From the IMG/VR virus record IMGVR_UViG_3300029092_000236: 29,083 bases of DNA; one strand, 5' to 3'. Position 1 is the first letter of the stretch, and each line of letters starts with the position of its first letter. This document shows positions 1 through 27,574 of the stretch, in pieces. The stretch comes from a virus. Its lineage: Duplodnaviria > Heunggongvirae > Uroviricota > Caudoviricetes. The position numbers were made by a program, and so were the translations under genes. Below the pieces are notes generated by a model. The model did no database searches, was not told where the DNA came from, and saw only the letters and a program-made list of their open reading frames with translations.

Positions 1-1553
<1,553 letters not shown>

Positions 1554-9300: not shown

Positions 9301-9656
9301 ACCCCCACTGGGAGGACCCGACAGCCTGACAACCGTGACGAGCATCTGAAACAGAGCGTTACATAATGGCATGGGGATAATTCAGAAGGACATCACAGCA
9401 TGCCCACACAAATTAGTGTGAGTGTCCTGTTTCTTACTACGCGCAGGACTGACGAGCATGAGGGGAAAATACGCGAACCGAAATGCCTTATCTTCAGAAA
9501 TGCAGCCGGCATCCGAACTGGACGATATTGTAAATTCACCTAAATACGAGGCATTGCTGTAGTTGAATTGCAGTACTGTATTAGCCTTACAGTGACAGAA
9601 TACGATATTGACTCTGTCACTTGTGAAATGGTCAGAATGGTTAGCAGTTATGGTGA

Positions 9657-10800: not shown

Positions 10801-11006
10801 TTCATTTTCACTTTCTTAAATCTAACGACAGATGGCTAACATTTAAGTATTGTGAAATATTATCAAATGTAATCATCATTGATTTACAAAAGATACATTT
10901 TGCCCCGAAAGGATTTCTGTCAGAAACATCAAAAGATGATGTTCTATACTGAGAACCATGGCAACACGGGCATCTAAAGTGAATATGGTTTGTAATATTT
11001 TCTACC

Positions 11007-11222
11007 TCAAAGTGCCACTACATGAACAGCTGCAGGGCCTTTAGGTCCGTTCTCAATACCAAATTCGACTTCCTGATTCTCAGTTAACGTTTTGAAATCG
11101 TTGCTCTGAATAGCTGAGAAATGCACAAACACATCTTTGCTACCATCTTTCGGCGTGATGAAACCAAAACCTTTTTCAGGGTTAAACCATTTCACTAAAC
11201 CAGTCATTTTGTTAAACATCAT
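11007..11222 (-). CDS. cspI: Cold-shock protein, CspA family (CspI-like)
   Basis: 70 aa with [66 protein letters not shown]; RNP1/RNP2 motifs present. Very close to recalled CspI. Long AT-rich 5' leader upstream. Confidence 0.85.
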
Positions 11223-11582
11223 TATTACCTTTTGAAGAAGTTAGCCCTTGGGCAGAATGGTCCGAAAAAAAATATCAGAGAGAAAAACCAACAAGGAAAT
11301 CTCAAGAGGTACAAATAATAAAATTATAACAATGACTGCTTCAGATAATTTTGTAACAAACCAGAACACCATTAACGCATGATTAACCAACCATAGCAAG
11401 GATTACTTTTGTAAAGAAAAACACACGAATGAAACAATAGCTTTATTTATTAATAAAACGTGTCATTCTGTCTAATGACCTTTTATCTTACCCTTAAGAT
11501 TTCAAGGATTTTGACTCATGGAAGAGTCCTTTTTATTTAAATTTCACATTCAGCGCTAAAAATAATCCGATTTAATATTAAT

Positions 11583-14176: not shown

Positions 14177-14455
14177 TATTGTGGTACTTTTTGTGGGAGT
14201 CATTCACTTACGCACTTTGTTTTGCTATGCCAGCAGTTAGCTTCTGCTGTAAAACTATTCATGCAGCAAACCTGCACTTCACCACAATGGTTAGCATACT
14301 TTTCCTGATTAAGTTATTGCCAAATATGCTGGCCATTGTTTCATGTATTGGACCTCCTTACTATTTATTAAAGAGATCCAATATTCACCACTCTGTCTGT
14401 ATCTCCACTCAGGCATCAGCCTTCTTCGTTATCGTATACAGACAAACTATGAATT

Positions 14456-14671
14456 TTAATCAGTAATTATGACATTTGCTGCTGCAGGACCTTTAGCACC
14501 ACTCTCTACAGAGAAGGTAACCTTTTGACCTTCAAACAAGGTTCGAAAATTATCATTCTGAATCGCAGAAAAATGCACAAACACATCTTTACTACCATCA
14601 ACAGGAGAAATAAAGCCAAAACCTTTATCAGCGTTAAACCATTTTACTAAACCAGTCATTTTATTTGACAT
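14456..14671 (-). CDS. cspB: Cold-shock protein, CspA family (CspB-like)
   Basis: 71 aa [71 protein letters not shown], close to recalled CspB. Confidence 0.85.
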
Positions 14672-14971
14672 TCTACATTCCTTAACTTGAGCCTTTCGGC
14701 ATAAATGGCTTGTATAACAGAAACGACTTCGTACTTAATTGGAGAGACTCAAAGAAGGAATAAGTGAATAACACCTGAAATGAGAACTGCTTTAGTAAAC
14801 TACTTCGTATATCGTCTGTTCTTCAAACCGACGCAATCATTAACGCATAGTTGAACATATGAAGCAATGTTTATTTTAGACATCCAGCCATCTTCAACCC
14901 CATCAAAAAACTATAGCTTTCTTCAGGAACGTGTGTATAGTGCGCCCAGTTATCAGTATTAAGGAATTTTT

Positions 14972-15599: not shown

Positions 15600-16352
15600 T
15601 TATCTCGTCACTTTTCTTAATTGCACCTCAGCATATGCTTCTTCCTGCCAGCACTTTGTAACCAGTTTATCAATGACATCTGCATATCCTTTGTACCACT
15701 GATAATCAGTCAGGTCTGGTACCAGCTTCTGGACATGACACCGCGCCAGTGTCGTTGGTAAACGACTAAACCGGTTTCCATTGCAACGCCCACAAATCTT
15801 ATAAACAGGCGCGCCATGAAGCCGGGTCCTTTTTTCATCCAGGACAATACCTTTACCCTTACACCCTCTGCACGCTGTGCTGACTTCTCCCTTACCATGA
15901 CAATGCTGACATAGTTCCTTCACCCACTCTTCCTTGATAACAGACTCCCCGCTTCTGGAGTATTTCACCACTTCGCGCAATACATTATGAAATCCAGTAC
16001 CAGCACAAGGCTCACAGCGAGCCTTACTTGCCGCAGACCTGGAATAATCAGCAAAGGCAAAACTCACAAGGTAAGGGATGATCTGTAACCGGATTTCTTC
16101 ACTCAATTTGTTCAATGTCGGGTTATCCAGTGCCATCGCGTAATTGAGCAGACCTTCAATCGCAAAGTGAGGATCCTGAACGCCAGCTTTTGCCAGGAAT
16201 AAGGCAAACCCAAGCGGTGCTTTCGACTGCACCATCCCCTGCGCAGCCATCACATCCGTAATCGTTAAACCACCTGAGCCTGTCGCCGGTGCGGCATCAC
16301 TCAATTTTGGAGATTTTGGGGAGTAATATTTTGGTAAGGCTTCAAGGTTCAT
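15600..16352 (-). CDS. Antitermination protein Q (QuuD/QuuQ-like, zinc-binding)
   Basis: 250 aa from ATG at 16350-16352 (MNLEALPKYYSPKSPK...), GGAG RBS. Cys-rich C-terminal half (CEPCAGTG, CQHCHGKG, CRGCKGKG, CGRCNG) typical of lambdoid Q homologs in E. coli prophages. Confidence 0.85.
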   Translation of the reverse strand: MNLEALPKYYSPKSPKLSDAAPATGSGGLTITDVMAAQGMVQSKAPLGFALFLAKAGVQDPHFAIEGLLNYAMALDNPTLNKLSEEIRLQIIPYLVSFAFADYSRSAASKARCEPCAGTGFHNVLREVVKYSRSGESVIKEEWVKELCQHCHGKGEVSTACRGCKGKGIVLDEKRTRLHGAPVYKICGRCNGNRFSRLPTTLARCHVQKLVPDLTDYQWYKGYADVIDKLVTKCWQEEAYAEVQLRKVTR

Positions 16353-16365
16353 GCTCGTTCTCCAC

Positions 16366-17361
16366 TTACGCCAGTACGCCAATTGCCAGCGCACGATCGA
16401 TAAAACGAAATATCAGCTCCAGTTGGGAGCCATACTTCTCTTCAAATGTCACGGTATCCGCATGCAGCTCGTCGTGATGCTTTCTGCACAAAGGCAACAC
16501 AAAGAGATCATGCGCTTTTGTACCCATTCCACCCTGACCGTGGCCTATCAGGTGGTGGGGATCATCAGCTGGCTTTCCACAACATGCGCACGGCTGCGTC
16601 TTAACCCAGCGCGTGTACTTTTCATTAACCCAGCGGCGACGTTTGGGGCGTAACATAAAAGACTCCGGCGACTCCGGATCCACTTTCAGCGCCAGCACCT
16701 TTTTCGCTTTATCCTGGATGATGCTGGTGGCAGGAACCGAAGGCACAAGGTCACTTTCCCGGGTGACAGATGGCACAACAGGCTTCGGTAATCTCAGTGC
16801 CTTACGGGCTGCACTTTCCGGTAAGGCATCCGCCAAATCATTACGAACCAGCCACCAGCACAGTTCCGGCATTGTCACAACGTGACTGTCATCAAAACCG
16901 AGATCCCGACGCACGACAGACAACACCCAGCGGGCACAGTTATCCGTTGCCATTGATTCCAGCCGTTCCGTGAACTGGTCACGCAGCTGGTTATCGCAGT
17001 GCCAGCACAGACGAATTGCTCCCGGAGCGTGCCGCATTGTGGTCATGTTCTCGCTGTGCCAGTCGGAATGAGGCCACTGACAGCCCTTTTCACGAAGTAA
17101 CCAGCTTTCAAGACATTCCACGCCACCAGCACGACGGATCACTGCCTCATTGCGGAACACGGCCCGAACGGCAGGATCATCCGCCAGCGGTTGTGATGCC
17201 GCCGGAACGGCACCACTGGCGAAAGATGAATAACGTTCCGGCTCAGGCTCCAGCAGGACACGCCCCTGCATAAACAGGGGCATCAGCTCTGAACCTGGCC
17301 TGAACAATACAATCCCCATACGCGGGGCAATTTCAGGGGTCAGTAGTGCTCTCACGGTCAC
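16366..17361 (-). CDS. DUF968-family protein (YdfU-like) with HNH-like Cys/His motif
   Basis: C-terminal QPCACCGKPADDPHHLIGHGQGG...LCRKHHDELH resembles an HNH/zinc-finger nuclease signature. Lies immediately upstream of Q, as ydfU does in Qin. Start ambiguous: GTG at 17361 or ATG at 17319. Confidence 0.65.
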   Translation of the reverse strand: MTVRALLTPEIAPRMGIVLFRPGSELMPLFMQGRVLLEPEPERYSSFASGAVPAASQPLADDPAVRAVFRNEAVIRRAGGVECLESWLLREKGCQWPHSDWHSENMTTMRHAPGAIRLCWHCDNQLRDQFTERLESMATDNCARWVLSVVRRDLGFDDSHVVTMPELCWWLVRNDLADALPESAARKALRLPKPVVPSVTRESDLVPSVPATSIIQDKAKKVLALKVDPESPESFMLRPKRRRWVNEKYTRWVKTQPCACCGKPADDPHHLIGHGQGGMGTKAHDLFVLPLCRKHHDELHADTVTFEEKYGSQLELIFRFIDRALAIGVLA

Positions 17362-17362
17362 C

Positions 17363-18160
17363 TCAATGAACGGTATCGAGCAGCTTTAACAGCTCAGGGA
17401 ATCGGGATTCGAAGAAATGCGGCTGCGTCTCGCGCGGATTTGCAGGACTGGTGATGTTCTTGCCGAACATGCAGCCTTTCGCCGTCAGCGACCAGAATTT
17501 TTTGATGTTGTTAATCGCGGTACGGCTGTATCGTTCGCGTTGTTCAACGATCCCCAGCTTCACCATCTGGTGATATGCCTGATTAGCCGTCAGGCGGATA
17601 CCATACTGCCTCAGCAGTGCACTCAGAGACAGCGTGGGGCGACTTGAGCCATCGTGTGCATCAGCAGGAGCATCAATGGCATAGCGCGGTGCCAGATTCG
17701 GTAAGCCAACAGCCTCCTGGAGTTTCTGGCAGGCACCAAGCACTGAAGAGTTAGACAGGTTTAATTCCCGGCGCATAAAGTCCAGCAGAATCACACCAGC
17801 CTGCATCTTGTCAGCAGCCTGTCCGGATAATTTTTCCGGTGCGCTGGTTACCATGTCGAAAGTACGGATCACCTTCAGATGGAATGACGGGCTGATCCAC
17901 ATTGCATAGGCATACACCAGTTCTTTGCAGACATACGTCCCCTGGTTATTTCCGCCACGAATAACGTTAACTGGCTCTATATTGACCGAGTTGCAAATCT
18001 GCAACTCGCTTATTAAACGCTCAGTTTGCTCATTGCGGAGCCAGAATGCGGGCTTATGCTTATCCAGAGAACCAGCAGCCCTGTGCAGATCGTTCAGGCT
18101 GTAACGCCCATAAGCATCACGACGAACTTCAATACCATCAATAACCATCAGATTATTCAT
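17363..18160 (-). CDS. KilA-N domain protein
   Basis: N-terminus MNNLMVIDGIEVRRDAYGRYSLNDLHRAAG...KPAFWLRNEQTERLISEL matches the KilA-N pattern. ATG at 18158-18160 with GAGGAG upstream. Confidence 0.6.
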   Translation of the reverse strand: MNNLMVIDGIEVRRDAYGRYSLNDLHRAAGSLDKHKPAFWLRNEQTERLISELQICNSVNIEPVNVIRGGNNQGTYVCKELVYAYAMWISPSFHLKVIRTFDMVTSAPEKLSGQAADKMQAGVILLDFMRRELNLSNSSVLGACQKLQEAVGLPNLAPRYAIDAPADAHDGSSRPTLSLSALLRQYGIRLTANQAYHQMVKLGIVEQRERYSRTAINNIKKFWSLTAKGCMFGKNITSPANPRETQPHFFESRFPELLKLLDTVH

Positions 18161-18179
18161 ACTTCGTTTCTCCTCTTAA

Positions 18180-18569
18180 TCAGGCGGCTGCACCCGCCGT
18201 TTTCTCGTACTTACTGATAGTGATCTCGACCTTCCCTTCCGGGATAACCGGTCCCCACTCCACCAGCATTCTTTTCACCTGACTGTCGTCTTCCCACACA
18301 CCCGCGTGGGTCAGGGCGTCAAACAGCGCCTTGTTATAGTTGTCCAGATCGCGGATCCGGTTATCCGGAGGAAACAACACGATCTCCACTGAAGCAGGTG
18401 CCGACGTTGGTTTTGGCAGACGACGTAACTGCTCAAATATTGCTGCACACGCCGCGCTCTGGAATTTGCGCCCCGCCGCGCTTATCAGGCTCTTACCAGC
18501 AAACGCCCCTTTGTTGGGGTGTCGCCAGTACGTGTTCACGCTGGGCGGGAAAGGCAGGATCAGCTTCAT
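18180..18569 (-). CDS. rusA: RusA-family Holliday junction resolvase
   Basis: 129 aa with PPSVNTYWRH and the conserved DLDNYNKALFDALT acidic block, as in RusA (recalled DLDNLQKAAFDALT). Confidence 0.8.
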   Translation of the reverse strand: MKLILPFPPSVNTYWRHPNKGAFAGKSLISAAGRKFQSAACAAIFEQLRRLPKPTSAPASVEIVLFPPDNRIRDLDNYNKALFDALTHAGVWEDDSQVKRMLVEWGPVIPEGKVEITISKYEKTAGAAA

Positions 18570-18892
18570 ACTTTCAGGCCCCTCTCATGTAACCAGTGGG
18601 CTGCACGCAGTCTGGCGTTTTCCTCACCGGCAAGCAGTGCACGGATAATCCCGGCTGCCTCGCTGTCGTCGTCCTTCACTGTGGTATGAAGCGTGATACC
18701 CCGGGCCACGCCACGCTTTATCGTGATGACGCCTTTTTTCTCCAGTGCGCGAAGATGCTCCACCGCTGCATTCACCGAACGGTATCCCAGCATGGCTGCC
18801 ACCTCCTGATTGGTTGGCGGGAAACCACGTTCTTTCTGATAAGAAATCAGCATATCCAGCACCTGCTGCTGGCATTGAGTTAACGTCGTCAT
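18566..18892 (-). CDS. LexA N-terminal DNA-binding-domain-only protein
   Basis: From ATG at 18890-18892: MTTLTQCQQQVLDMLISYQKERGFPPTNQEVAAMLGYRSVNAAVEHLRALEKKGVITIKRGVARGITL parallels the E. coli LexA N-domain (recalled MKALTARQQEVF...GIRLL). No S24 peptidase domain. Coupled to neighbours (TAATG, ATGA). Confidence 0.6.
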   Translation of the reverse strand: MTTLTQCQQQVLDMLISYQKERGFPPTNQEVAAMLGYRSVNAAVEHLRALEKKGVITIKRGVARGITLHTTVKDDDSEAAGIIRALLAGEENARLRAAHWLHERGLKV

Positions 18893-19380
18893 TAAGCCCA
18901 CACGTAATTCCCTGACAGATACCACTCATCACCCGATACAGCGCGCTTGCTGCTTTTCCGTAAGCACCGCTCACGGCGCGCCAGAAAATTGTTTCGTTCT
19001 GACTGGGAGTGGCTTTCACGGAATGCCGCCATCCACACGGTTGCAGCACGACGGTATAAGCCCCTGGACTCCAGTTCTTCAGCCTGGCGGGTCAGGCACA
19101 AAATTACCCGGGGATCGTTAGTGCCGACATAGAAATTGCGCACAGGTCTGGTTTCACGAACTGGTTGTGGTTCCGGCTCCTGCGCTCTCTCAGTCAGGCG
19201 CGGGAAATGTCTGCGTGTATCTCCTTCACAACGGTGAGCCACACGCCCACTCTGACGTAACTTGCTTGCTGACTGCAGAACGCGCTGCCGTGAGTAACCT
19301 GCAAAAGCATCTGCAATGTCTCCGGAAGTACACCCCGGATGGGCTTCAATGAATTTCTGAACTTCATTCAAAAGACTCAT
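18892..19380 (-). CDS. Hypothetical regulator: N-terminal winged-helix-like region, C-terminal PerC-like motif
   Basis: C-terminal AEELESRGLYRRAATVWMAAFRESHSQSERNNFLARRERCL resembles the recalled PerC/Pch motif (GLWRRAA..W). Assignment is tentative. Confidence 0.4.
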   Translation of the reverse strand: MSLLNEVQKFIEAHPGCTSGDIADAFAGYSRQRVLQSASKLRQSGRVAHRCEGDTRRHFPRLTERAQEPEPQPVRETRPVRNFYVGTNDPRVILCLTRQAEELESRGLYRRAATVWMAAFRESHSQSERNNFLARRERCLRKSSKRAVSGDEWYLSGNYVWA

Positions 19381-19382
19381 GA

Positions 19383-20201
19383 TTACCCCCTGAATCCTGC
19401 CGGGATCTGGCTGTAGTCCACGTTGTCGTAACTGGCTTTGAAGTACGGGTCCTCGCGTCTGGCTGCAGATACCGCAGGAACTTCCCAGGATTCTTCGAAA
19501 TGACGATCCGGACCAAAGAACGTGACAGCCTGTTTCACAAATTGTGTGCCGCTGTTACCCATCGCAGATACCCAGCCCGCGTAGCGTTTCACACCTTCCA
19601 GCATGGTTTCGGGTTTTACCCCCTCATTCAAACGGGCTTTCCAGGCTTTGAAGGCTGCAGATTTTGAATTGCCACCAGCACGTTTGGGGTATGCCAGCCA
19701 TGCCTGCTCAAACTCCGGAGAGTATTCCGGTCGGTTTGAACGAACTCGCACAGACTCATCAGCAGATGCACCAACAGCTATTGGTTCATTGACTGGTTCT
19801 TTGACTGGTTCAAAAGAGTGACTGGTTCTGGGTGAATCTCCTGCACCACCCCCTGGTGCAACTCCTGCACTACCTGGTGAATTTGCTGCACCAGATAGTG
19901 AATTATTTGCACTACCCCCTAGTGAATCTCCTGCACCATCAAGATGAAGGAGATAGATATTACTTGAGTTACCTTTTTCACCTTTCCGGGTGACTTTTTT
20001 TACCAGCCCGGAATCACAAAGGGCCGCAATATGATTCATCACAGAACGTTTGCTAATCTCGCACTGGTCAGCAATATGCTGGTAGCTGGGCCAGCACTCA
20101 CCCTGATCGCTGGCATTATCAGCCAGCTTGATCAGAACCAGTTTTCGCAATGGATTACCCACTCGAATTTTCATCGCTTTAACCATCAGCTCCATACTCA
20201 T
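19383..20201 (-). CDS. Replication initiator (lambda O-like organiser) with low-complexity linker encoded by iterons
   Basis: ATG at 20199-20201 with GGAGG upstream. N-terminal winged-helix region (LRKLVLIKLADNASDQGECWPSYQHIADQCEISKRSVMNHIAALCDSGLV), a Gly/Ser/Ala-rich middle encoded by the repeats at 19781-19940, and C-terminal PEFEQAWLAYPKR...AFKAWKARL. Confidence 0.7.
   Translation of the reverse strand: MSMELMVKAMKIRVGNPLRKLVLIKLADNASDQGECWPSYQHIADQCEISKRSVMNHIAALCDSGLVKKVTRKGEKGNSSNIYLLHLDGAGDSLGGSANNSLSGAANSPGSAGVAPGGGAGDSPRTSHSFEPVKEPVNEPIAVGASADESVRVRSNRPEYSPEFEQAWLAYPKRAGGNSKSAAFKAWKARLNEGVKPETMLEGVKRYAGWVSAMGNSGTQFVKQAVTFFGPDRHFEESWEVPAVSAARREDPYFKASYDNVDYSQIPAGFRG
19781..19940. 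repeat. Iteron array (candidate replication origin) inside the initiator gene
   Basis: At least three tandem copies of TGACTGGTTC (19790-19829) followed by about five roughly 22-bp repeats of the form RGTGAATCTCCTGCACCA (19831-19938), then a moderately AT-rich stretch. Arrangement parallels lambda ori inside gene O. Confidence 0.6.
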
Positions 20202-20434
20202 GCTGCACCTCCGAGATGCTTCATGTTTTTTCCGGAGCAAAAGGCTATAAGCGGCATACTGATGCGGTAATTACGGCCCAGCGGTTCACAAATCACCTTC
20301 TGACATTCACGGTCAACCAGGCTAACACGTAGAACATGCCCTGCAGGCGTGGTGTACCACTGCCCAACTGTAGGAATTGATGTTTTTTTACGCTGAAGCA
20401 AACGGCAAATATTGAGGATCAACGGATTAAGCAT
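20198..20434 (-). CDS. Hypothetical protein (78 aa), translationally coupled upstream of the initiator
   Basis: ATG at 20432-20434 with GGAGGG upstream; its stop overlaps the initiator start (ATGA). Basic, Cys-containing. No family recognised. Confidence 0.45.
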   Translation of the reverse strand: MLNPLILNICRLLQRKKTSIPTVGQWYTTPAGHVLRVSLVDRECQKVICEPLGRNYRISMPLIAFCSGKNMKHLGGAA

Positions 20435-21263
20435 GACGATGCCCTCCGCTGATATTCAGGAGACGGTGAATATGAAAATTAGCCTTATCCGCCAGACGAA
20501 TACGTTCAGCCTGCAAGTTAAGAAGGGTTTCTACCAAAACCTGATGCGCCTGCGGATCCGAAAGAGTTACCTTGCGCAGAGCACGTAGTGCAGTTGTTAC
20601 ATAACTGAGTTTATGTAAGTCTTCATCATTCAGACGAGTGAGGGCTGGGACAGTAGCCATGATGGCAGCCTCCGATAACAGTGAATTACCTTCACCACCG
20701 GAAACGCCAATTTCGCTGGTGGTGAACTGAACGGGGTTGGCGTAACCGGCGTTATCGGAAACCGGCGCACCTTTCGGTGCCCCCGTCCAGCCCACCATAA
20801 TTTGGGTGTGCACAGACACAGACGATAAAAAAGACGCTGGCGCGTCATATATCGCCGATAACATTTCCAGGACGCCAATCCCGTCACCCGCTTTATAAGG
20901 TGCCTGAACAGTGTAACGTCCCGGAATGGCAGAATCAATGTGCTGGTGGTCCTTCACACTCAACAAAATCACGCCTGAATTTCCACAAAGGACTAAAGCA
21001 CTCATGCGGGTAGTCTTTGCGAAGATAGATAACGCGCTGTGTTTCTGGTTCCCAACGAATAACATGGACATAAAGCCCTCTTCCGTCACGAAACCAGCGG
21101 TTAAGTTCCCGCACAACTCGCCCCCCACAGTCAGGTAAAGTTCTCTGTGGTTACTTACAGCCAGGTGATTTGGTAATCTGCATTCATGCCGTAACAACAG
21201 GTGTTCAGCGACACTGACCACCAGCTGTTGCGACAAACGGTTATTTGCCGTTAAACTGTTCAT
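20427..21263 (-). CDS. Hypothetical protein (278 aa) between the CII-like gene and the replication initiator
   Basis: Start overlaps the CII-like stop (ATGA at 21260-21263). Long clean ORF with a Gly-rich middle region. No family recognised. Confidence 0.55.
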   Translation of the reverse strand: MNSLTANNRLSQQLVVSVAEHLLLRHECRLPNHLAVSNHRELYLTVGGELCGNLTAGFVTEEGFMSMLFVGNQKHSALSIFAKTTRMSALVLCGNSGVILLSVKDHQHIDSAIPGRYTVQAPYKAGDGIGVLEMLSAIYDAPASFLSSVSVHTQIMVGWTGAPKGAPVSDNAGYANPVQFTTSEIGVSGGEGNSLLSEAAIMATVPALTRLNDEDLHKLSYVTTALRALRKVTLSDPQAHQVLVETLLNLQAERIRLADKANFHIHRLLNISGGHRHA

Positions 21264-21823
21264 GCGTTAGTTTCTCCACAGACACAAAACGCCACGACGC
21301 CCGGAGCTGCACACTCGCGGGCGTCACTCTTTTCTGGAGCGCAAAAGATTTTGTAGACCAGTGCTGCATGCTCTTGGAGCTTCGAAATTGACAGATACAA
21401 CTCATCATTAATTGCTGTCTGCTCGTGTGGCTCCACGACCCCATCTTCGATTGCCGAACGAATCTGCTTTGAGTAATTCCCGATCTGTTCGATGACTTCC
21501 AGCAGGCGCTGGTTTATATCGGCGTTCTCTACTTCCTCAATTTCAGGAAGCGATACGAACACCCCACCAGCAGACTGTGCGACAGCATCCGCAATGTAGT
21601 GAGTGTCAGCCGCGCGCTGTAAAACCATTGCCCATCCCAGCGGGAAAATCTGATCGCCATCGGCACGAAGGCGGTTAAATAATGCGTTCTCTGTTACATC
21701 CAGCCAGTCAGCTGCTTCAGCGTAACCACCCGGCAACGCTGCGATAGTTTTTCTGACAGCTTTCACGTACCACTCAGGCTGTTTTTCTACTTTCCAGTGA
21801 TACTTACCCACGGTTAGCCTCAT
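21260..21823 (-). CDS. CII-like early regulatory protein (CP76 / YdaT-like position)
   Basis: 187-aa ORF directly downstream of the Cro-like gene, in the position of cII/ydaT in lambdoid and Rac-type prophages. Family assignment is by position and general character only. Confidence 0.4.
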   Translation of the reverse strand: MRLTVGKYHWKVEKQPEWYVKAVRKTIAALPGGYAEAADWLDVTENALFNRLRADGDQIFPLGWAMVLQRAADTHYIADAVAQSAGGVFVSLPEIEEVENADINQRLLEVIEQIGNYSKQIRSAIEDGVVEPHEQTAINDELYLSISKLQEHAALVYKIFCAPEKSDARECAAPGVVAFCVCGETNA

Positions 21824-22055: not shown

Positions 22056-22145
22056 ACAATATGTACCTCCAGTATACATATTACATGATTGAAATGAACC
22101 TTCAAGATACTTGTACCTTATCGGTACAAAGGTTTTAATTTCGTT
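22056..22145. promoter_or_regulatory. Immunity-region divergent promoter/operator segment
   Basis: 90-bp cro-cI intergenic region with a perfect palindrome TTGTACC-TTATC-GGTACAA (22111-22129) and an imperfect ATGTAC-N7-ATACAT element (22061-22079). Candidate -35/-10 hexamers for both divergent transcripts. Confidence 0.5.
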
Positions 22146-22820
22146 ATGAAAACAATCCATGACATCCGGCGGTCTAACGCCAGAAAACTGAGAGATGGTG
22201 TTGGCGGAAATTCATCCTTTGCCACCATGATTGATCGCGAGCCAACCCAAACCAGCAGGTTTATGGGGGATGGCGCTACTAAAAATATCGGTGACAGCAT
22301 GGCACGGCACATCGAAAAATGTTTCGACCTGCCTGTCGGATGGCTTGATCAAGAACACCAGACAACGAACATCACAAAAAAACCTGATGTTTCAATCACT
22401 AACAAACAAATAACGTTAGTCCCTGTCATATCATGGGTACAGGCCGGAGCATGGAAAGAAGTTGGCTATTCTGAGGTTGATTTGAGCACAGCAGAAACGT
22501 ATCCCTGCCCTGTACCCTGTGGCGAAATGACTTATATCTTGCGGGTGATTGGTGATTCAATGATTGATGAGTACCGCCCAGGAGACATGATTTTTGTTGA
22601 TCCCGAAGTCCCTGCCTGCCACGGTGACGACGTTATTGCATTGATGCACGATACAGGCGAAACCACCTTCAAGCGATTGATAGAAGATGGAACACAGCGT
22701 TATCTCAAAGCATTAAACCCAAACTGGCCTGAGCCTTACATTAAGATTAACGGTAATTGCTCTATAATTGGTACAGTGATTTTCTCGGGAAAACCAAGAA
22801 GATACACAATAAAGGCCTAA
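22146..22820 (+). CDS. cI-like prophage repressor (N-terminal HTH, C-terminal S24 LexA-type autopeptidase)
   Basis: 224 aa. C-terminal domain has LexA/cI peptidase-like blocks (VIGDSM, GDMIFVD) and an N-terminal HTH-like region (SSFATMIDREPTQTSRF...DSMARHIEKCFDLPVGWL). Confidence 0.75.
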   Translation: MKTIHDIRRSNARKLRDGVGGNSSFATMIDREPTQTSRFMGDGATKNIGDSMARHIEKCFDLPVGWLDQEHQTTNITKKPDVSITNKQITLVPVISWVQAGAWKEVGYSEVDLSTAETYPCPVPCGEMTYILRVIGDSMIDEYRPGDMIFVDPEVPACHGDDVIALMHDTGETTFKRLIEDGTQRYLKALNPNWPEPYIKINGNCSIIGTVIFSGKPRRYTIKA

Positions 22821-22832
22821 TCAATATTTATG

Positions 22833-22857
22833 AACCTGCTTCGGCAGGTTTTTTTAT
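22833..22857 (+). terminator. Rho-independent terminator after the repressor gene
   Basis: AACCTGC-TTCG-GCAGGTT hairpin followed by TTTTTTTAT, 13 nt after the cI-like stop. Confidence 0.6.
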
Positions 22858-22859
22858 AC

Positions 22860-22895
22860 TTGACAATGTACCCATGAGATACATAATGTATCCAA
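22860..22895 (+). promoter_or_regulatory. Candidate early (pL-like) promoter with overlapping palindromic operator
   Basis: -35 TTGACA (22860-22865), 16-17 nt spacer, -10 CATAAT/ATAATG (22882-22888). A perfect 15-bp palindrome GATACATAATGTATC (22878-22892) overlaps the -10. Confidence 0.5.
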
Positions 22896-23488
22896 AAGAA
22901 ACATGAGGCAGGCAAGATTCAAACAAAATTTGGTTGTAACACGGCGTATGGCACATGCGTCGTTAGCGGTCTGGGGACGTTAAAGGGGACAATCCACTCC
23001 TTGCTAGGGCAAACAAACCAGGTAGCCGGAATGTGCAAGTCAATGATGATGCTGATAAGACGCCTAACCAGCGTGGCGATCCGGTTTGACGCCTGGGAAG
23101 AGACCAGGGTGCAACGATGAGGGCATTTATGGAGCCGCGACAAAGTGTGGTGCCGTAACTGGCTAAGTGCTCTCAGCGTTGTGGTCATCCGCGAAATGGC
23201 GCGGCGGTAAGTATGGCTGGGTTACTCTTTCCCCGTTGAGGACACCGGATTGTCAGGTTGACCATACGCCTGAGTGACAACCCCACCACAACAGCCACTG
23301 CTTTGGCGGTACCAGTTTGTACACTTGCTTCCGGCTGGTACCGCTCTTTTTACAAAACAGAGAAGAGCATCACCGGACGACGGGCTCATAACCCAATCCA
23401 TCCGGGCGGCTGCCACCGCAGGTGTTCTTCTCTGTTTTGTGGAGAAACCAACCGACCTTGCAGGGTCGATATGATGAGGAGCAGCAAA

Positions 23489-23851
23489 ATGGCTAGCGAA
23501 CGCAGTACTGATGTGCAGGCATTTATCGGGGAGCTGGACGGCGGCGTATTTGAAACCAAAATCGGCGCAGTTCTCAGTGAAGTCGCTTCCGGTGTGATGA
23601 ACACGAAAACCAAAGGTAAGGTCTCACTCAACCTGGAAATCGAACCATTTGATGAGAACCGTGTGAAAATCAAACACAAACTCTCATATGTTCGCCCGAC
23701 TAACCGCGGGAAAATTTCCGAAGAAGACACCACCGAAACGCCGATGTATGTCAATCGCGGTGGTCGCCTGACTATTCTGCAGGAAGACCAGGGACAATTA
23801 CTGACTCTTGCCGGTGAACCTGACGGAAAACTACGCGCAGCAGGTCATTAA
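23489..23851 (+). CDS. Hypothetical early protein (120 aa), YfdP-like by position
   Basis: ATG at 23489 with GAGGA 8 nt upstream (alternative ATG at 23471). First gene of the rightward early operon. The ORF-track N-terminal extension from 23258 is unlikely to be coding. Confidence 0.45.
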   Translation: MASERSTDVQAFIGELDGGVFETKIGAVLSEVASGVMNTKTKGKVSLNLEIEPFDENRVKIKHKLSYVRPTNRGKISEEDTTETPMYVNRGGRLTILQEDQGQLLTLAGEPDGKLRAAGH

Positions 23852-23916
23852 TATCGTTCTTAATTAACTGATTATTTATCTCATCACTGAATATCTTTAT
23901 ATAGTGAGGACTTATT

Positions 23917-24741
23917 ATGTCTCAGAACTTAGACGCAACCGCAATTAATCAAATCCATGCCCTTATTTCTGCTCAGGGTGTTAATGAAATTATCAGTAAG
24001 ATTGGTGCCGATGCTGTGGTATTGCCTGAGAATTTCCGCATTCATGATCTGGAAAAATTTAATTTAAATCGCTTCCGTTTCCGTGGTGCGCTTTCCACTG
24101 CCAGCATCGATGACTTTACCCGTTATTCTAAAGATCTTGCAGATGAAGGCACCCGCTGCTTTATCGATGCTGATAATATGCGTGCCGTCAGTGTACTTAA
24201 CCTGGGTACTATTGATGAACCAGGTCACGCAGATAACACCGCCACTCTCAAACTGAAAAAGACAGCACCGTTCTCTGCCCTGTTGTCTGTTAACGGCGAG
24301 CGTAACTCCCAGAAGTCACTGGCAGAATGGATTGAAGACTGGGCCGACTACCTTGTGGGCTTTGATGCTAATGGTGACGCTATTCAGGCAACAAAAGCGG
24401 CTGCGGCAGTCCGTAAAATCACGATTGAAGCAAACCAGACCGCTGATTTTGAAGATAATGACTTCAGCGGCAAACGCTCCCTGATGGAATCTGTCGAAGC
24501 GAAGACCAAAGACATTATGCCAGTGGCATTTGAAATTAAATGCGTTCCGTTTGAAGGTCTGAAAGAACGTCCGTTTAAATTACGCCTCAGCATTATCACT
24601 GGCGATCGTCCTGTACTGGTTCTGCGCATTATTCAGCTGGAAGCGGTGCAGGAAGATATGGCTAACGAATTTCGTGATCTGCTTGTTGAGAAATTCAAAG
24701 ACAGCAAAGTAGAAACCTTTATTGGTACTTTCACCGCCTGA
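23917..24741 (+). CDS. DUF2303 / YfdQ-like protein (274 aa)
   Basis: ATG at 23917 with GTGAGGA RBS. Size and gene order (120 aa, 274 aa, HD hydrolase, 120 aa) mirror recalled yfdP-yfdQ-yfdR-yfdS of CPS-53. Confidence 0.5.
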
Positions 24742-24868
24742 TTTCATTACTGCAAATGCCCCTGCGGGGGCATTTATGGAAACGTAATTAACTCAATAAT
24801 CACCGGATGGTGAGGGCTTCCTTTTACCCAAACTCAGCGCGGTGCAGCGCATATACGTGGAGAACAAA

Positions 24869-25405
24869 ATGTCATTTATTAAAACTTTTTCCGGGAAGCA
24901 TTTTTATTATGACAAGATAAATAAAGACGACATCGTGATTAACGATATCGCGGTTTCCCTTTCAAATATCTGCCGCTTTGCCGGTCATCTTTCTCACTTC
25001 TACAGTGTCGCCCAACATGCGGTGCTTTGCAGCCAGCTGGTGCCGCAGGAATTTGCTTTTGAAGCGTTAATGCATGATGCAACAGAAGCGTATTGCCAGG
25101 ATATTCCCGCTCCACTGAAACGCCTTCTTCCTGACTATAAACGGATGGAAGAAAAAATTGACGCCGTAATCCGTGAGAAATACGGGTTACCCCCAGTTAT
25201 GAGTACGCCCGTGAAATATGCCGATCTTATCATGCTGGCAACCGAACGCCGCGATCTCGGGCTTGATGATGGCTCTTTCTGGCCTGTACTGGAAGGCATC
25301 CCGGCAACAGAGATGTTCAACGTGATTCCACTGGCACCTAGCCATGCCTACGGGATGTTTATGGAACGTTTTAACGAGTTATCGGAGTTACGCAAATGCG
25401 CATGA
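24869..25405 (+). CDS. HD-domain phosphohydrolase (YfdR-like 5'-deoxynucleotidase)
   Basis: From ATG at 24869 (MSFIKTFSGKHFYYD...). HD-superfamily metal-binding motif (H-x-HD) within QHAVLCSQLVPQEFAFEALMHDATEAY. Confidence 0.7.
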   Translation: MSFIKTFSGKHFYYDKINKDDIVINDIAVSLSNICRFAGHLSHFYSVAQHAVLCSQLVPQEFAFEALMHDATEAYCQDIPAPLKRLLPDYKRMEEKIDAVIREKYGLPPVMSTPVKYADLIMLATERRDLGLDDGSFWPVLEGIPATEMFNVIPLAPSHAYGMFMERFNELSELRKCA

Positions 25406-25758
25406 ATGTTTTCGAAATGGAAGGGTTTCTTCGCGGTAAATGTGTACCGCGAGATCTGAAAGTGAACGAAACAAATGCTGAGTACCTGGTACGTAAATTC
25501 GACGCGCTTGAAGCTAAATGTGCGGCACTGGAAAACAAAATAATACCAGTGTCAGCTGAACTGCCACCAGCAAATGAAAGTGTTCTGTTATTTGATGCTA
25601 ACGGAGAAGGCTGGCTGATTGGCTGGCGTTCTCTCTGGTACACCTGGGGACAAAAAGAAACCGGAGAATGGCAGTGGACATTTCAGGTCGGGGACCTTGA
25701 AAACTTCAATATCACTCACTGGGCAGTAATGCCAAAAGCGCCGGAGGCTGGAGCATAA
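25396..25758 (+). CDS. Hypothetical protein (120 aa), YfdS-like with DUF551-like C-terminus
   Basis: ATG at 25396 with GGAG 8 nt upstream, overlapping the preceding stop. Trp-rich C-terminus ...NITHWAVMPKAPEA resembles the DUF551 tail. Confidence 0.5.
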   Translation: MRMNVFEMEGFLRGKCVPRDLKVNETNAEYLVRKFDALEAKCAALENKIIPVSAELPPANESVLLFDANGEGWLIGWRSLWYTWGQKETGEWQWTFQVGDLENFNITHWAVMPKAPEAGA

Positions 25759-26378
25759 TGACCACATTTACCAATAAAGAACTGATTAAAGAAATCAAAG
25801 AACGAATCAGCAGCCTAGAGGTTCGAGACGATATTGAGCGCCGTGCTTATGAAATTGCTCTGGCATCGCTAGAAGAGGAGCCGGTGGCATGGCTGCATTC
25901 AGAAAATGGCTTAGGTATTCCGGCAATAACGAGGAGTAAAAACATTGCTGACAGTTGGTTATCAAAGGGCTGGTATGTTCAGCCGCTATATATAGCCAAG
26001 CCAGTGCCGGTGGTGCCAGATGCTCGTCCGTCTTTAAATAATGGCATAGTCGGCTTTGATGAAGGCTGGAACGCCTGCCGCGCCGCCATGCTTAATGGTG
26101 CCGAACCTGTAAGCCAGACTTACAAGTTGAACGAGCTGTCGGGCAACTCTCCGGTAACTCCGGATGGTTGGATAAGCTGTAGTGAGCGAATGCCGAACGA
26201 TAAACAGTATGTTTGGTGTTGGGGTAAGTCTTACGGCTGGACTGAGTACGATACCTTCGAAGGGTATTACGATTGTTCGAGAAACAAATGGTGGGCAGTT
26301 ACTGACAATGGGGAAGAACCGGCATCGAAAGTAACCCACTGGATGCCGCTACCGGAGCCGCCGCAGGAGGTGAAGTAA
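25758..26378 (+). CDS. DUF551-like domain protein (206 aa)
   Basis: Start overlaps the preceding stop (TAATG). C-terminus ...KVTHWMPLPEPPQEVK matches the recalled DUF551 terminal motif. Confidence 0.5.
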   Translation: MTTFTNKELIKEIKERISSLEVRDDIERRAYEIALASLEEEPVAWLHSENGLGIPAITRSKNIADSWLSKGWYVQPLYIAKPVPVVPDARPSLNNGIVGFDEGWNACRAAMLNGAEPVSQTYKLNELSGNSPVTPDGWISCSERMPNDKQYVWCWGKSYGWTEYDTFEGYYDCSRNKWWAVTDNGEEPASKVTHWMPLPEPPQEVK

Positions 26379-26572
26379 TGAACAACTTAATGACAACTAA
26401 ACAAGTCGCCGATTTCTGTGGTGTTTCAGTATCGACAGTTCTTCGCTGGAACAGCGTAAACAGGAGAACTGGCCAGAAATACAGGCCTGACTTTCCAGAT
26501 CCTGATATTAAATCCTGCCCAAATAAATGGGCATCACACAAGATTTACAGATTTGCGGGAGTGATTGATTAA
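26378..26572 (+). CDS. AlpA/Xis-type excisionase (small HTH protein)
   Basis: 64 aa MNNLMTTKQVADFCGVSVSTVLRWNSVNRRTGQKYRPDFPDP..., the AlpA-like pattern. Strong RBS AGGAGGTG. Last gene of the early operon, near the integrase. Confidence 0.6.
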   Translation: MNNLMTTKQVADFCGVSVSTVLRWNSVNRRTGQKYRPDFPDPDIKSCPNKWASHKIYRFAGVID

Positions 26573-26854
26573 TATGTATTAGCTTAGATGTGAGCTGACA
26601 CATCTATGATTAGATGCCAAACCAAATCTGAGCGTCCACTCTTTAACAAGAGCGGACGTTACCAATGACCATATGACATGAATCGATAAGATCAAAACAT
26701 TATCGCCAAGAAATGTCATACCATTGATACAAATAAAATTGATTACCCCCTTACTCTTGTTGAAAAGTTAGTCGTAGAGTACCTATCGCAATGTAATCAG
26801 CTTTAATCATCTGAAAATTACTCCTTAAAAATTAGCTTTTATATACTGAACAAA

Positions 26855-27574
26855 TTAAATCTCTGTTTCTTTTCCTGTTCGGCTCAACCAATACTCCATT
26901 GTTTGAGTATGAATCTTTTCAGCGTATATTTTATCAATTAATTTATCTCGTTTTTCTTTAATGACTTTACGCAGTGAATCATATAACATAAAAAAACGTT
27001 CATCATCTTCCTCATTATTACCATAATTTATTTGATTGAGTTCTGAAAAAATATGATAGCACCTTTTTTTCTTGGTCCCCGGCAATATTAAAACCAAGCC
27101 ACATTGATCATATTCAAATTCACCTTTATGGGCAGCAAAGTTATGTCTAACATTCATAATAGAATCATGTAAATCTCTGTATTTTTCTGGCACATGCTTT
27201 CTCTGCAATGTGAATCGACGCCCTTTCGCCTCTGTAAAACACTTACCGTAAGTAACAACTTTTGATATAAATAAAGACTTTAATATTAGATTCTTTTCTA
27301 AATCAGGATAAATAAAGTGTTGTTCTCTATTAATGTTATTACAAATGTTTTTTATTATATTCTCCCAACCAATAACATTCCGAAGATCTTTATCCAGCAA
27401 CTGTAAGGCCACATATTGTTCTACAAAGCGGCCTTTTAAAGGTATTCGTGGTAATATTACACCTTTCTGCTTATAAACTCTTTCTATCGTATTATCTGGA
27501 TATTGGATCTTCCTTATTTCTATTCCGTCTTCTTCTGATACCCTTACTAATGGTTCATTTTTTAACTTTGACAT
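26855..27574 (-). CDS. Hypothetical AT-rich cargo protein (239 aa) with possible HEPN-like R-x5-H motif
   Basis: ATG at 27572-27574 with AGAGGG RBS. The coding sequence and flanks are visibly much more AT-rich than neighbouring phage genes. Contains RHNFAAH. No family confidently recognised. Confidence 0.6.
   Translation of the reverse strand: MSKLKNEPLVRVSEEDGIEIRKIQYPDNTIERVYKQKGVILPRIPLKGRFVEQYVALQLLDKDLRNVIGWENIIKNICNNINREQHFIYPDLEKNLILKSLFISKVVTYGKCFTEAKGRRFTLQRKHVPEKYRDLHDSIMNVRHNFAAHKGEFEYDQCGLVLILPGTKKKRCYHIFSELNQINYGNNEEDDERFFMLYDSLRKVIKEKRDKLIDKIYAEKIHTQTMEYWLSRTGKETEI

Follow-up and report, generated by a model that had tools for sequence, protein, structure and literature searches.

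The yfdPQRS genes in a native early-left operon with a structured leader RNA in a lambdoid prophage

Gene content and order of the operon

The window, by which we mean the whole 29,083-nucleotide stretch of viral DNA (Caudoviricetes; IMG/VR record IMGVR_UViG_3300029092_000236), contains a run of genes and regulatory elements that extends from a repressor gene to an excisionase gene (Table 1). An open reading frame scan places the five genes at its center at the positions assigned to them in the initial annotation, which had likened their sizes and order to the yfdP-yfdQ-yfdR-yfdS-yfdT cluster of the K-12 prophage CPS-53 (KplE1) and had proposed pairwise alignment with its products. BLASTP comparison with the proteins translated from CPS-53 of K-12 MG1655 bears out this likeness for the first four, which match YfdP, YfdQ, YfdR and YfdS over their full length at 98.9-99.2% identity, in the same order and orientation. 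RefSeq gives these same yfd names to the genes in identical genomes, and at the DNA level the homology with K-12 covers positions 23470-25882 of the window with 98.2% identity. In the case of yfdR the open reading frame opens at a GTG at 24842 (187 aa), while initiation at the ATG used in K-12 yields a protein with two substitutions in 178 residues.

Table 1. Positions of the genes and regulatory elements of the locus in the window
Feature	Position	Strand	Description
LexA-like (peptidase S24) CI-type repressor gene	22146-22820	+	Pfam Peptidase_S24, 92.8 bits; upstream of the operon
Intrinsic terminator of the repressor gene	22832-22858	+	8-bp GC-rich stem, UUCG loop, U-run
PL-like early promoter and predicted operators	22860-22904	+	sigma-70-like, 11/12 consensus positions
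Leader RNA domain 1	22938-23186	+	conserved structured RNA of ~190-250 nt; outside the region of the initial annotation
Terminator-like hairpin in leader	23305-23351	+	inverted repeat GGCGGUACCAG / CUGGUACCGC, then UCUUUUU
Leader RNA domain 3	23352-23488	+	hairpin with 25-bp arms (inverted repeat) and branched interior
yfdP	23489-23851	+	120 aa; 99.2% to K-12 YfdP over 120/120
yfdQ	23917-24741	+	274 aa; 98.9% to K-12 YfdQ over 274/274
yfdR	24869-25405	+	HD-domain phosphohydrolase, 178 aa; 98.9% to K-12 YfdR over 178/178
yfdS	25396-25758	+	120 aa; 99.2% to K-12 YfdS over 120/120
yfdT-like/DUF551 gene	25758-26378	+	206 aa; yfdT-like N-terminus (42 aa) fused to DUF551
xis, excisionase	26378-26572	+	64 aa; final gene of the operon; PHROG 1553 excisionase, E = 6e-36

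The correspondence with CPS-53 ends within the fifth gene. Its first 42 residues align with the 101-aa K-12 YfdT at 95% identity, but the remainder does not match, and an assignment as YfdT was dropped; K-12 YfdT diverges beyond this point and lacks the DUF551 domain (PF04448) that occupies residues 137-203 of the protein encoded here (65.8 bits), in keeping with the initial description of the fifth product as DUF551-like. Phages 2H10 and cdtI carry the same open reading frame in intact form. A borderline match to DUF551 was also recovered at the C-terminus of YfdS (22.6 bits against a Pfam cutoff of 22). YfdQ is a DUF2303 protein (PF10065; 309.3 bits against a cutoff of 26.6, profile positions 2-269 of 269), which matches the entry 'YfdQ Protein' in PDB 9o7m with 36 chains (E = 7e-43); no mention of this entry was found in the literature. 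A fold search with the AF2 model of YfdQ gave no significant match, and no recognizable fold was found for either YfdP or YfdQ.

Since the ends of yfdR, yfdS, the DUF551 gene and xis overlap (by 10 nt, 1 nt and 1 nt respectively), these genes are read as one translationally coupled operon, which thus runs on past 26378, where the initial annotation ended, into xis. The 64-aa xis product matches HTH_17 (Pfam) and is annotated as an excisionase in 2H10 and cdtI. It showed no relationship to TorI in BLASTP; whereas K-12 uses TorI and IntS, the present prophage has this unrelated excisionase and an integrase that is just 22% identical. Phages 2H10 (Glaedevirus), cdtI, Ayreon and Stx2c-converting phages share 95.7-98.3% DNA identity over 97-100% of positions 23200-26700 of the window, and the two annotated records among them, 2H10 and cdtI, display the repressor gene, leader, yfdP, yfdQ, yfdR, yfdS, DUF551 gene and xis in the same order. 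They differ in the moron between xis and int, which is a 239-aa reading frame here and in 2H10 but encodes a 710-aa protein in cdtI. PADLOC returned no matches for any protein of the cluster or for the 239-aa moron, and the replication region of the phage encodes an HTH_36/DnaD_N protein only, with no helicase or loader. The stretch is best explained as the early-left operon yfdP-yfdQ-yfdR-yfdS-(DUF551)-xis, native and complete, from a 2H10/cdtI-type lambdoid prophage.

As a gene cluster yfdPQRS is already known and the present copy adds nothing new, since thousands of genomes carry an annotation of the cluster and a paper has been devoted to it; of 5426 complete E. coli genomes, 3981 contain matches to it. 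The linkage of yfdP, yfdQ and yfdR is also seen in Kosakonia and Phytobacter at 60-68% identity, while a search for related loci with the YfdQ alignment returned only loci that are 99-100% identical.

The regulatory region and the leader RNA

In an identical genome the repressor gene upstream of the operon bears a ymfK/LexA family annotation, and in phage cdtI it is annotated as 'cI'. It is followed by an intrinsic terminator recovered in a terminator scan (-11.6 kcal/mol, z = -5.2) and then by a strong promoter with a -35 element TTGACA (22860-22865), a 16-nt spacer and a -10 element CATAAT (22882-22887). The spacer and part of the -10 element lie within a predicted operator, an exact ATGTAC-N7-ATACAT palindrome at 22866-22884, and a second operator-like palindrome with two mismatches follows at 22886-22904. 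The exact palindrome occurs at just one other place in the window, 22061-22079, in the repressor/cro intergenic region. Sites with at most two mismatches number 10 against 2.3 expected, and seven of these fall at four positions in the promoter and repressor/cro regulatory regions. The shared palindrome agrees with the earlier proposal of an operator-controlled early promoter, and the predicted operators overlapping the promoter, its location on the strand of the repressor gene and its lead into xis are all features of a lambda-type PL operon. However, between the promoter and yfdP lies a structured leader of 600 nt, which is missing from the initial annotation and contains a terminator-like hairpin; expression of the operon is therefore not expected to be under operator control alone. 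In CPS-53 the homology starts 19 nt before yfdP, indicating that the K-12 copy has lost the repressor, the promoter and the entire structured leader.

Folding of the 602-nt leader as a whole gives z = -7.6. Domain 1, a conserved structure within it, has four nested helices as well as two putative pseudoknots, and its core at 22938-23127 is extended to 23186 by a CGUUGUGG tail and a long-range stem. When 23 distinct sequences are aligned with MAFFT, 96.9% of the cells at paired positions are paired, against 25-42% in controls with slid partners, and changes on both sides were observed at 12 pairs in 61 cells, against at most 4 and at most 8 respectively in the controls. A covariance model of the domain gave a match of 160.7 bits. 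The RNA is present in a single copy in the window and is present yet unannotated in 1636 of the 5426 complete E. coli genomes (30%), including Stx-phage lysogens; in P1-like and epsilon15-like phages it also lies beside tRNA genes. No plus-strand match at E<=5 was found within the leader RNA domains in Rfam 15. The region 22800-23520 gave four weak matches, none of which reached the gathering threshold, namely a partial rsmX on the plus strand at the terminator of the repressor gene, and, on the minus strand, one to CC0196 (14.6 bits, 23012-23060) and two that cover the promoter and the same terminator. A literature search with an invariant 15-mer recovered nothing.

Several other identities were considered for the leader and set aside. 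The plus strand of 22894-23489 has no ATG-initiated reading frame of at least 40 aa, and a coding function was rejected in view of compensatory base changes and of indels in the aligned leader whose lengths are not divisible by three. A tRNA was suspected because the homologues in P1 and phiV10 abut tRNA genes, but ARAGORN finds none in the window. A hammerhead-like reading of the segment CGAUGAG was rejected as the segment varies between lineages, and a 19-mer match in an Oscillospiraceae contig was discarded as fortuitous, since it fails to align.

Downstream of domain 1 lies the terminator-like hairpin (-22.4 kcal/mol, z = -3.5), which would act as a terminator; an equivalent GC-rich stem followed by a U-run is visible in the Kosakonia and Phytobacter rows of the leader alignment. 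It abuts domain 3, which always accompanies yfdP and consists of a hairpin with arms at 23352-23376 and 23416-23440, a small hairpin at 23453-23468 and a stretch with the Shine-Dalgarno sequence GAGGAG at 23476-23481. The consensus fold of a 190-nt stretch from four lineages has 14 pairs changed on both sides, mostly in domain 3; changes in the stem of the terminator-like hairpin went uncounted in this figure because the consensus fold left that stem unpaired.

This organization is reminiscent of the put RNAs of phage HK022, in that domain 1 follows closely on the early promoter of a lambdoid phage with no N gene at that place, and lies upstream of a terminator-like hairpin. However, the put RNAs are ~70 nt long, form two stem-loops and are found at PL as well as PR, whereas domain 1 spans 190-250 nt, has at least four helices, is single-copy in the window and is also found beside tRNA genes in the P1-like and epsilon15-like phages. 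Homology to put was rejected, as a search of the immunity region of HK022 (22000-32000) with the domain 1 covariance model gave no hit. Similarly, antitermination of the lambda N/nut type was discounted, there being no ATG-initiated candidate N reading frame of at least 40 aa as the first gene of the operon. We tentatively suggest that domain 1 might define an undescribed class of pseudoknotted RNA which, with the terminator-like hairpin and the segment 23352-23470, may act as an antitermination or attenuation switch that works independently of N, although we hold this with less than even confidence. Under such a reading the RNA would be conserved in Enterobacterales prophages between the LexA-like repressor genes and yfdPQR, and the same RNA would have been transplanted beside the tRNA genes of P1-like and epsilon15-like phages; once the repressor is lost, the switch would set early-left expression, including that of the potentially DnaA-targeting YfdQRS and of xis.

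YfdR and the role of the cluster

The third gene product had been described as an HD-domain hydrolase, and the H...HD...D metal-binding residues are indeed present: H50, H69 and D119 are invariant and D70 is nearly invariant (>=90%) across 28 family members. These residues, along with E73 and D78, which are themselves invariant or nearly so in the 28 homologues, align with those of the HD protein Atu1052 (PDB 2gz4, E = 4e-14). The more specific label of a 5'-deoxynucleotidase is less secure. YfdR, a member of PHROG 318, has the HD fold and the H...HD...D metal site in common with YfbR, the E. coli HD-domain 5'-deoxynucleotidase, by analogy to which its family is annotated. However, the match is short and falls below threshold, with scores under the Pfam cutoffs for the YfbR-like family PF12917 (24.2 against 25.9 bits) and HD_3 (16.8 against 22.5), and far under that of the NCBIfam YfbR equivalog NF003009 (19.9 against 122). 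Also, YfbR is not known to us to bind DnaA. Against the label, YfdR's affinities for nucleotides are reported to be far below YfbR's, and its function has been called elusive (PMC4776307).

The DnaA binding and inhibition of initiation given for YfdR in the initial annotation agree with the binding and the multicopy effect described by Noguchi & Katayama 2016 (PMC4776307). In that work YfdR binds domain I of DnaA in a Phe46-dependent manner, in competition with DiaA and DnaB, which use the same surface; multicopy yfdQRS or yfdQRT inhibits initiation at oriC, with yfdP being dispensable, and the inhibition requires yfdQ, yfdR and either yfdS or yfdT both in vivo and in vitro, while YfdQ, YfdS and YfdT show no tight binding to YfdR or DnaA (PMC4776307). 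The effect was seen in multicopy only, deletion of yfdQRST had no phenotype, and the authors concede that it could be an artefact of overexpression (PMC4776307). The view of YfdR as a DnaA-binding inhibitor of initiation remained accepted in 2025. From its 98.9% identity to the tested K-12 protein we infer that the YfdR of this phage would likewise bind DnaA and, with its partners, inhibit initiation.

These observations can be combined into a mechanism, which we favor with moderate confidence, wherein the locus is a native repressor-controlled early-left operon whose YfdR, with its partners, blocks initiation at oriC via DnaA. In the lysogen the LexA-like self-cleaving repressor would sit on the palindromic operators over the promoter at 22860-22887 and keep the operon off. 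Upon SOS-induced cleavage of the repressor, or upon infection, the 600-nt structured leader and then the coupled genes would be transcribed. YfdR, an HD-fold protein, would bind the Phe46 surface of DnaA domain I used by DiaA and DnaB, and, with YfdQ and either YfdS or the DUF551 protein as partners, it would block helicase loading and initiation at oriC. As the phage encodes an HTH/DnaD-like initiator but neither a helicase nor a loader, such a shutdown would leave DnaB-DnaC for the phage origin. The early-left operons of lambdoid phages are described as frequently carrying the cluster (PMC12315714). It may participate in host takeover, with inhibition of initiation as its potential role in phage development and putative roles for YfdP, YfdQ and YfdS.

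Comparable targeting of DnaA is found in Bacillus subtilis SirA, which uses the equivalent Phe49, and in lambda P, which also inhibits DnaA (PMC4776307). However, YfdR has no sequence or fold relationship to DiaA, SirA or lambda P, and the yfd effect requires at least three proteins. Lambda P binds domain III of DnaA and is itself the helicase loader.

Alternatively, the enzymatic activity of YfdR might be its main action, with the DnaA binding being incidental. As a metal-dependent phosphohydrolase it would reshape the (deoxy)nucleotide pool to serve DNA synthesis of the phage, or destroy a nucleotide signal of the host, for example a defence second messenger. The intact and conserved H...HD...D motif with E73 and D78 is consistent with this, as is the labeling of the family in PHROG and RefSeq as a dNMP phosphatase or 5'-deoxynucleotidase, and the low reported affinity for ordinary nucleotides (PMC4776307) might mean that the true substrate is something else. 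We nevertheless regard this as unlikely, in view of the sub-threshold YfbR-like and HD_3 scores, the far lower standing against the YfbR equivalog and the lack of PADLOC matches; moreover, a lone enzyme leaves the requirement of the only known phenotype for yfdQ and yfdS or yfdT unexplained.

The location of the cluster at the position of the lambdoid Rec module, in an early-left operon with no recognizable recombinase, could alternatively point to an unrecognized recombination or DNA-repair module replacing Red/Erf, in which YfdQ would be a multimeric DNA-binding protein; the 36 copies in the deposited structure of a YfdQ homologue make a large assembly possible. This appears improbable, as phages whose Rec module is complete carry the cluster too, and a recombination role has been judged unlikely (PMC12315714). 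We see similarly little chance that the genes are expressed from the prophage during lysogeny and benefit the lysogen through stress tolerance, with slower initiation under stress. Most E. coli genomes retain the cluster and, according to the summary given in PMC4776307, deletion of CPS-53, yfdQ or yfdS in K-12 raises sensitivity to H2O2/acid. However, the only strong promoter is overlapped by predicted operators and followed by the terminator-like hairpin in the leader, which implies that expression in a stable lysogen should be low, and, with its native promoter and leader lost, the K-12 copy has phenotypes that may not reflect the native state.

The value of this stretch is modest and lies in showing the module in its native regulatory setting, while the copy used for all experiments, that of K-12, is stripped of repressor, promoter and leader. 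An inducible lysogen of this phage type would therefore be the right system for the role of YfdPQRS, whose benefit to the phage may be a shutdown of host replication via DnaA, an effect on nucleotide chemistry or another function. More interest attaches to the leader RNA, which is abundant, unannotated and supported by covariation, and is placed where lambdoid phages lacking N would need an antitermination device.

The yfd operon and its control region

BLASTP comparison of the window products with the translated CPS-53 genes of E. coli K-12 MG1655 (NC_000913) recovered near-identical counterparts over the full length of YfdP (120 aa, 99.2% identity), YfdQ (274 aa, 23917-24741, 98.9%), YfdR (178 aa, 98.9%) and YfdS (120 aa, 99.2%). 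All five ORFs of the initial annotation are present in 23489-26378, and the likeness to the Yfd proteins that it had proposed is borne out by these four. The fifth product, of 206 aa (25758-26378), does carry the expected C-terminal DUF551 domain (65.8 bits), but its match to YfdT (95% identity) is confined to residues 1-42. In a genome with a 100% identical region (22559-23179 therein) PGAP splits this intact 206-aa ORF into two fragments labelled as partial pseudogenes; in phage records it stands as one intact gene. Stop and start codons overlap at the yfdR/yfdS, yfdS/DUF551 gene and DUF551 gene/xis junctions, and the 64-aa ORF at the last of these is an excisionase (PHROG 1553, E = 6e-36). 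Accordingly, a single transcription unit extends from yfdP to xis, so that the cluster lies where it had been placed while its 3' end reaches slightly past the proposed limit at 26378.

The spacer of the early promoter holds ATGTACCCATGAGATACAT. Mismatch-free copies of the palindrome ATGTAC-N7-ATACAT are confined to this spacer and to positions 22061-22079 between the repressor and cro genes, with degenerate copies at 22094 and 22886. This recurrence of the palindrome from the repressor/cro region within the promoter supports, at the level of sequence, the proposed operator control of early transcription.

The gene cluster itself is already known and annotated. Matches to the 3.5-kb region occur in 3981 of 5426 complete E. 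coli genomes, at least 80% of it being covered at one place in 465, and RefSeq names its genes yfdP, yfdQ and yfdR (5'-deoxynucleotidase). The phages 2H10, cdtI and Ayreon, along with a series of Stx2c-converting phages, show 95.7-98.3% identity across 97-100% of the region. The annotation of 2H10 and of cdtI shows the arrangement seen here: repressor, leader, yfdP, yfdQ, yfdR, yfdS, DUF551 gene, xis, moron and int. The DNA homology to K-12 spans 23470-25882 (98.2%) and starts only 19 nt 5' of the yfdP ATG (position 9586 of the K-12 locus). Consequently, the K-12 copy, which is the one behind all published experiments, is devoid of the native promoter, operators and leader RNA, the leader having been lost in its entirety.

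The gap between xis and int is a typical site of morons or defence genes. Here it holds a 239-aa ORF without a match in Pfam, whereas cdtI has a different, 710-aa gene; PADLOC recovered no matches to this product or the cluster proteins.

Features of the leader and other parts of the window
Feature	Position	Strand	Remarks
isrC sRNA match	1060-1182	-	
Early-right region	15600-21823	-	HTH_36/DnaD_N-type initiator at 19383-20240
119-aa protein	18566-18925	-	LexA DNA-binding domain only (68.5 bits), without S24 cleavage domain
Repressor gene	22146-22820		Peptidase S24
Repressor gene terminator	22832-22851		Clean terminator
Early promoter	22860-22887		TTGACA-16 nt-CATAAT; 11/12 consensus positions; directly after terminator
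Domain 1	22938-23186	+	Conserved pseudoknotted RNA; strong covariation
Terminator-like hairpin	23305-23351	+	GC-rich 11-bp stem (GGCGGUACCAG/CUGGUACCGC), then UCUUUUU
Domain 3	23352-23470	+	Branched 25-bp-arm hairpin and small hairpin just 5' of Shine-Dalgarno
xis	26378-26572		64 aa
239-aa ORF	26855-27574	-	35% GC segment; PHROG 8440 (function unknown)

A structured and mobile leader RNA

The approximately 600 nt between promoter and yfdP fold much better than their shuffled versions (z = -7.6), contain no credible ORF or Rfam match, and comprise three conserved parts: domain 1, a terminator-like hairpin and domain 3. For domain 1, a structure of four nested helices and two pseudoknot pairings was evaluated on 23 distinct sequences aligned with MAFFT. 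In this structure 96.9% of the cells are paired, versus 25-42% in slid-partner controls, with 12 pairs (at most 4 in the controls) and 61 cells (at most 8) changed on both sides; the observed covariation score was reached in none of 500 shuffles. The corresponding covariance model has a single match in the window and none in the HK022 immunity region or K-12 CPS-53.

Domain 1 is a mobile module with three settings: the equivalent place in other lambdoid phages; P1, P7 and D6, where it directly follows tRNA-Ile and precedes ban; and epsilon15-like Uetakeviruses, where it lies immediately 5' of tRNA-Arg. Across 151 loci, yfdP follows it on the same strand in 63 (28 of these also with a LexA-like repressor 5' of it), tRNA-Arg is found just downstream in 30 and tRNA-Met/Ile just upstream in 28. 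The 22-mer formed by CCA followed by the invariant 19-mer GGTAGCCGGAATGTGCAAG matched over 120 IMG/VR contigs. The 19-mer by itself matched 24 loci in a set of 185,579 species genomes, all in Enterobacterales except two, of which one is a chance match and the other a mislabelled MAG. In Kosakonia and Phytobacter the order repressor-RNA-yfdPQR is kept with proteins only 29-34% and 60-68% identical. Domain 1 is carried by 1636 of the 5426 complete E. coli genomes; among the records listed, none has an annotated feature at its position. It is apparently an undescribed, widely distributed structured RNA.

A consensus fold of the 190 nt 5' of yfdP has 14 pairs changed on both sides across four lineages, mostly in the long hairpin of domain 3. 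The distant leaders of Kosakonia and Phytobacter show the equivalent GC-rich stem and U-run in their alignment rows, the consensus fold leaving this stem unpaired; both the terminator-like and the domain 3 hairpins are recognisable in them. A motif GUGCUCU...GUUGUGG is repeated at the 3' sides of domains 1 and 3. The 85-89% identity of the middle leader (23178-23300, + strand) to unrelated phages (Evi, PPompW-type and an Actinobacillus pleuropneumoniae phage) suggests that it is another mobile non-coding module. Given that the order promoter, conserved RNA, terminator, gene is as expected of such a device, we infer that the leader may effect antitermination or attenuation in a lambdoid phage without N. 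It differs from the put RNAs of HK022, which are roughly 70 nt and not homologous to domain 1.

Cluster proteins and host replication

The YfdR residues H50, H69, D70 and D119 (H...HD...D), together with E73 and D78, align with those of the HD protein Atu1052 (2gz4, E = 4e-14) and show little or no variation among 28 homologues of 65-88% identity, upholding the proposed metal site. YfdR falls under the Pfam cutoffs (YfbR-like, HD_3) and far under the NCBIfam YfbR equivalog cutoff; judged by its sequence, it is an HD protein of a separate family and not a YfbR. YfdQ is a DUF2303 protein over its full length. A homologue with roughly 40% of its aligned residues in common accounts for 36 chains in PDB entry 9o7m ('YfdQ Protein'), on which no paper was found in the literature; as the example chain of this entry is C, A and B could be different molecules. 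No convincing fold neighbours emerged for the AF2 model of either YfdQ or YfdP.

The initial annotation had described a DnaA-binding YfdR and inhibition of initiation upon overexpression of the cluster, in accurate agreement with Noguchi & Katayama 2016 (PMC4776307), still the sole work cited in papers of 2025-2026. There yfdQRST was a multicopy suppressor of hda-185, the effect requiring yfdQ, yfdR and either yfdS or yfdT but not yfdP; inhibition of initiation held across several genetic backgrounds as well as in vitro, and YfdR had much lower nucleotide affinities than YfbR. Gene deletion was without effect, and the authors regarded an overexpression artefact as possible. On the basis of multicopy experiments with the K-12 remnant, the best-supported mechanism is that on induction the cluster would inhibit host initiation through DnaA, which for phage biology is a proposal. 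The early-right region encodes no phage helicase or helicase loader, and the phage presumably relies on host DnaB-DnaC to replicate. A need to draw DnaB-DnaC from oriC would be in keeping with the absence of these genes, though not established by it.

Elsewhere in the window, Rfam matches to C4 antisense RNA (20715-20802, - strand, 82.8 bits) and isrK (20827-20903, - strand, 55.4 bits) lie inside or adjoining an Ash-family gene (20427-21263), and the locus is a P1/P7-type antisense immunity element within a lambdoid early-right operon. Two cspA-thermoregulator matches (10961-11377 and 14393-14832, - strand) fall in a low-GC block at 9-16 kb that, like Qin-type prophages, carries morons with cold-shock genes. 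The 119-aa LexA-domain protein is possibly a LexA mimic that cannot be cleaved, with the capacity to modulate the SOS response.

Thus, the yfd cluster reported in the initial annotation is real and its interpretation essentially right. The window further allows this cluster to be seen in its native regulatory context, and reveals, just 5' of the coordinates originally assigned to it, the structured RNA of its leader.
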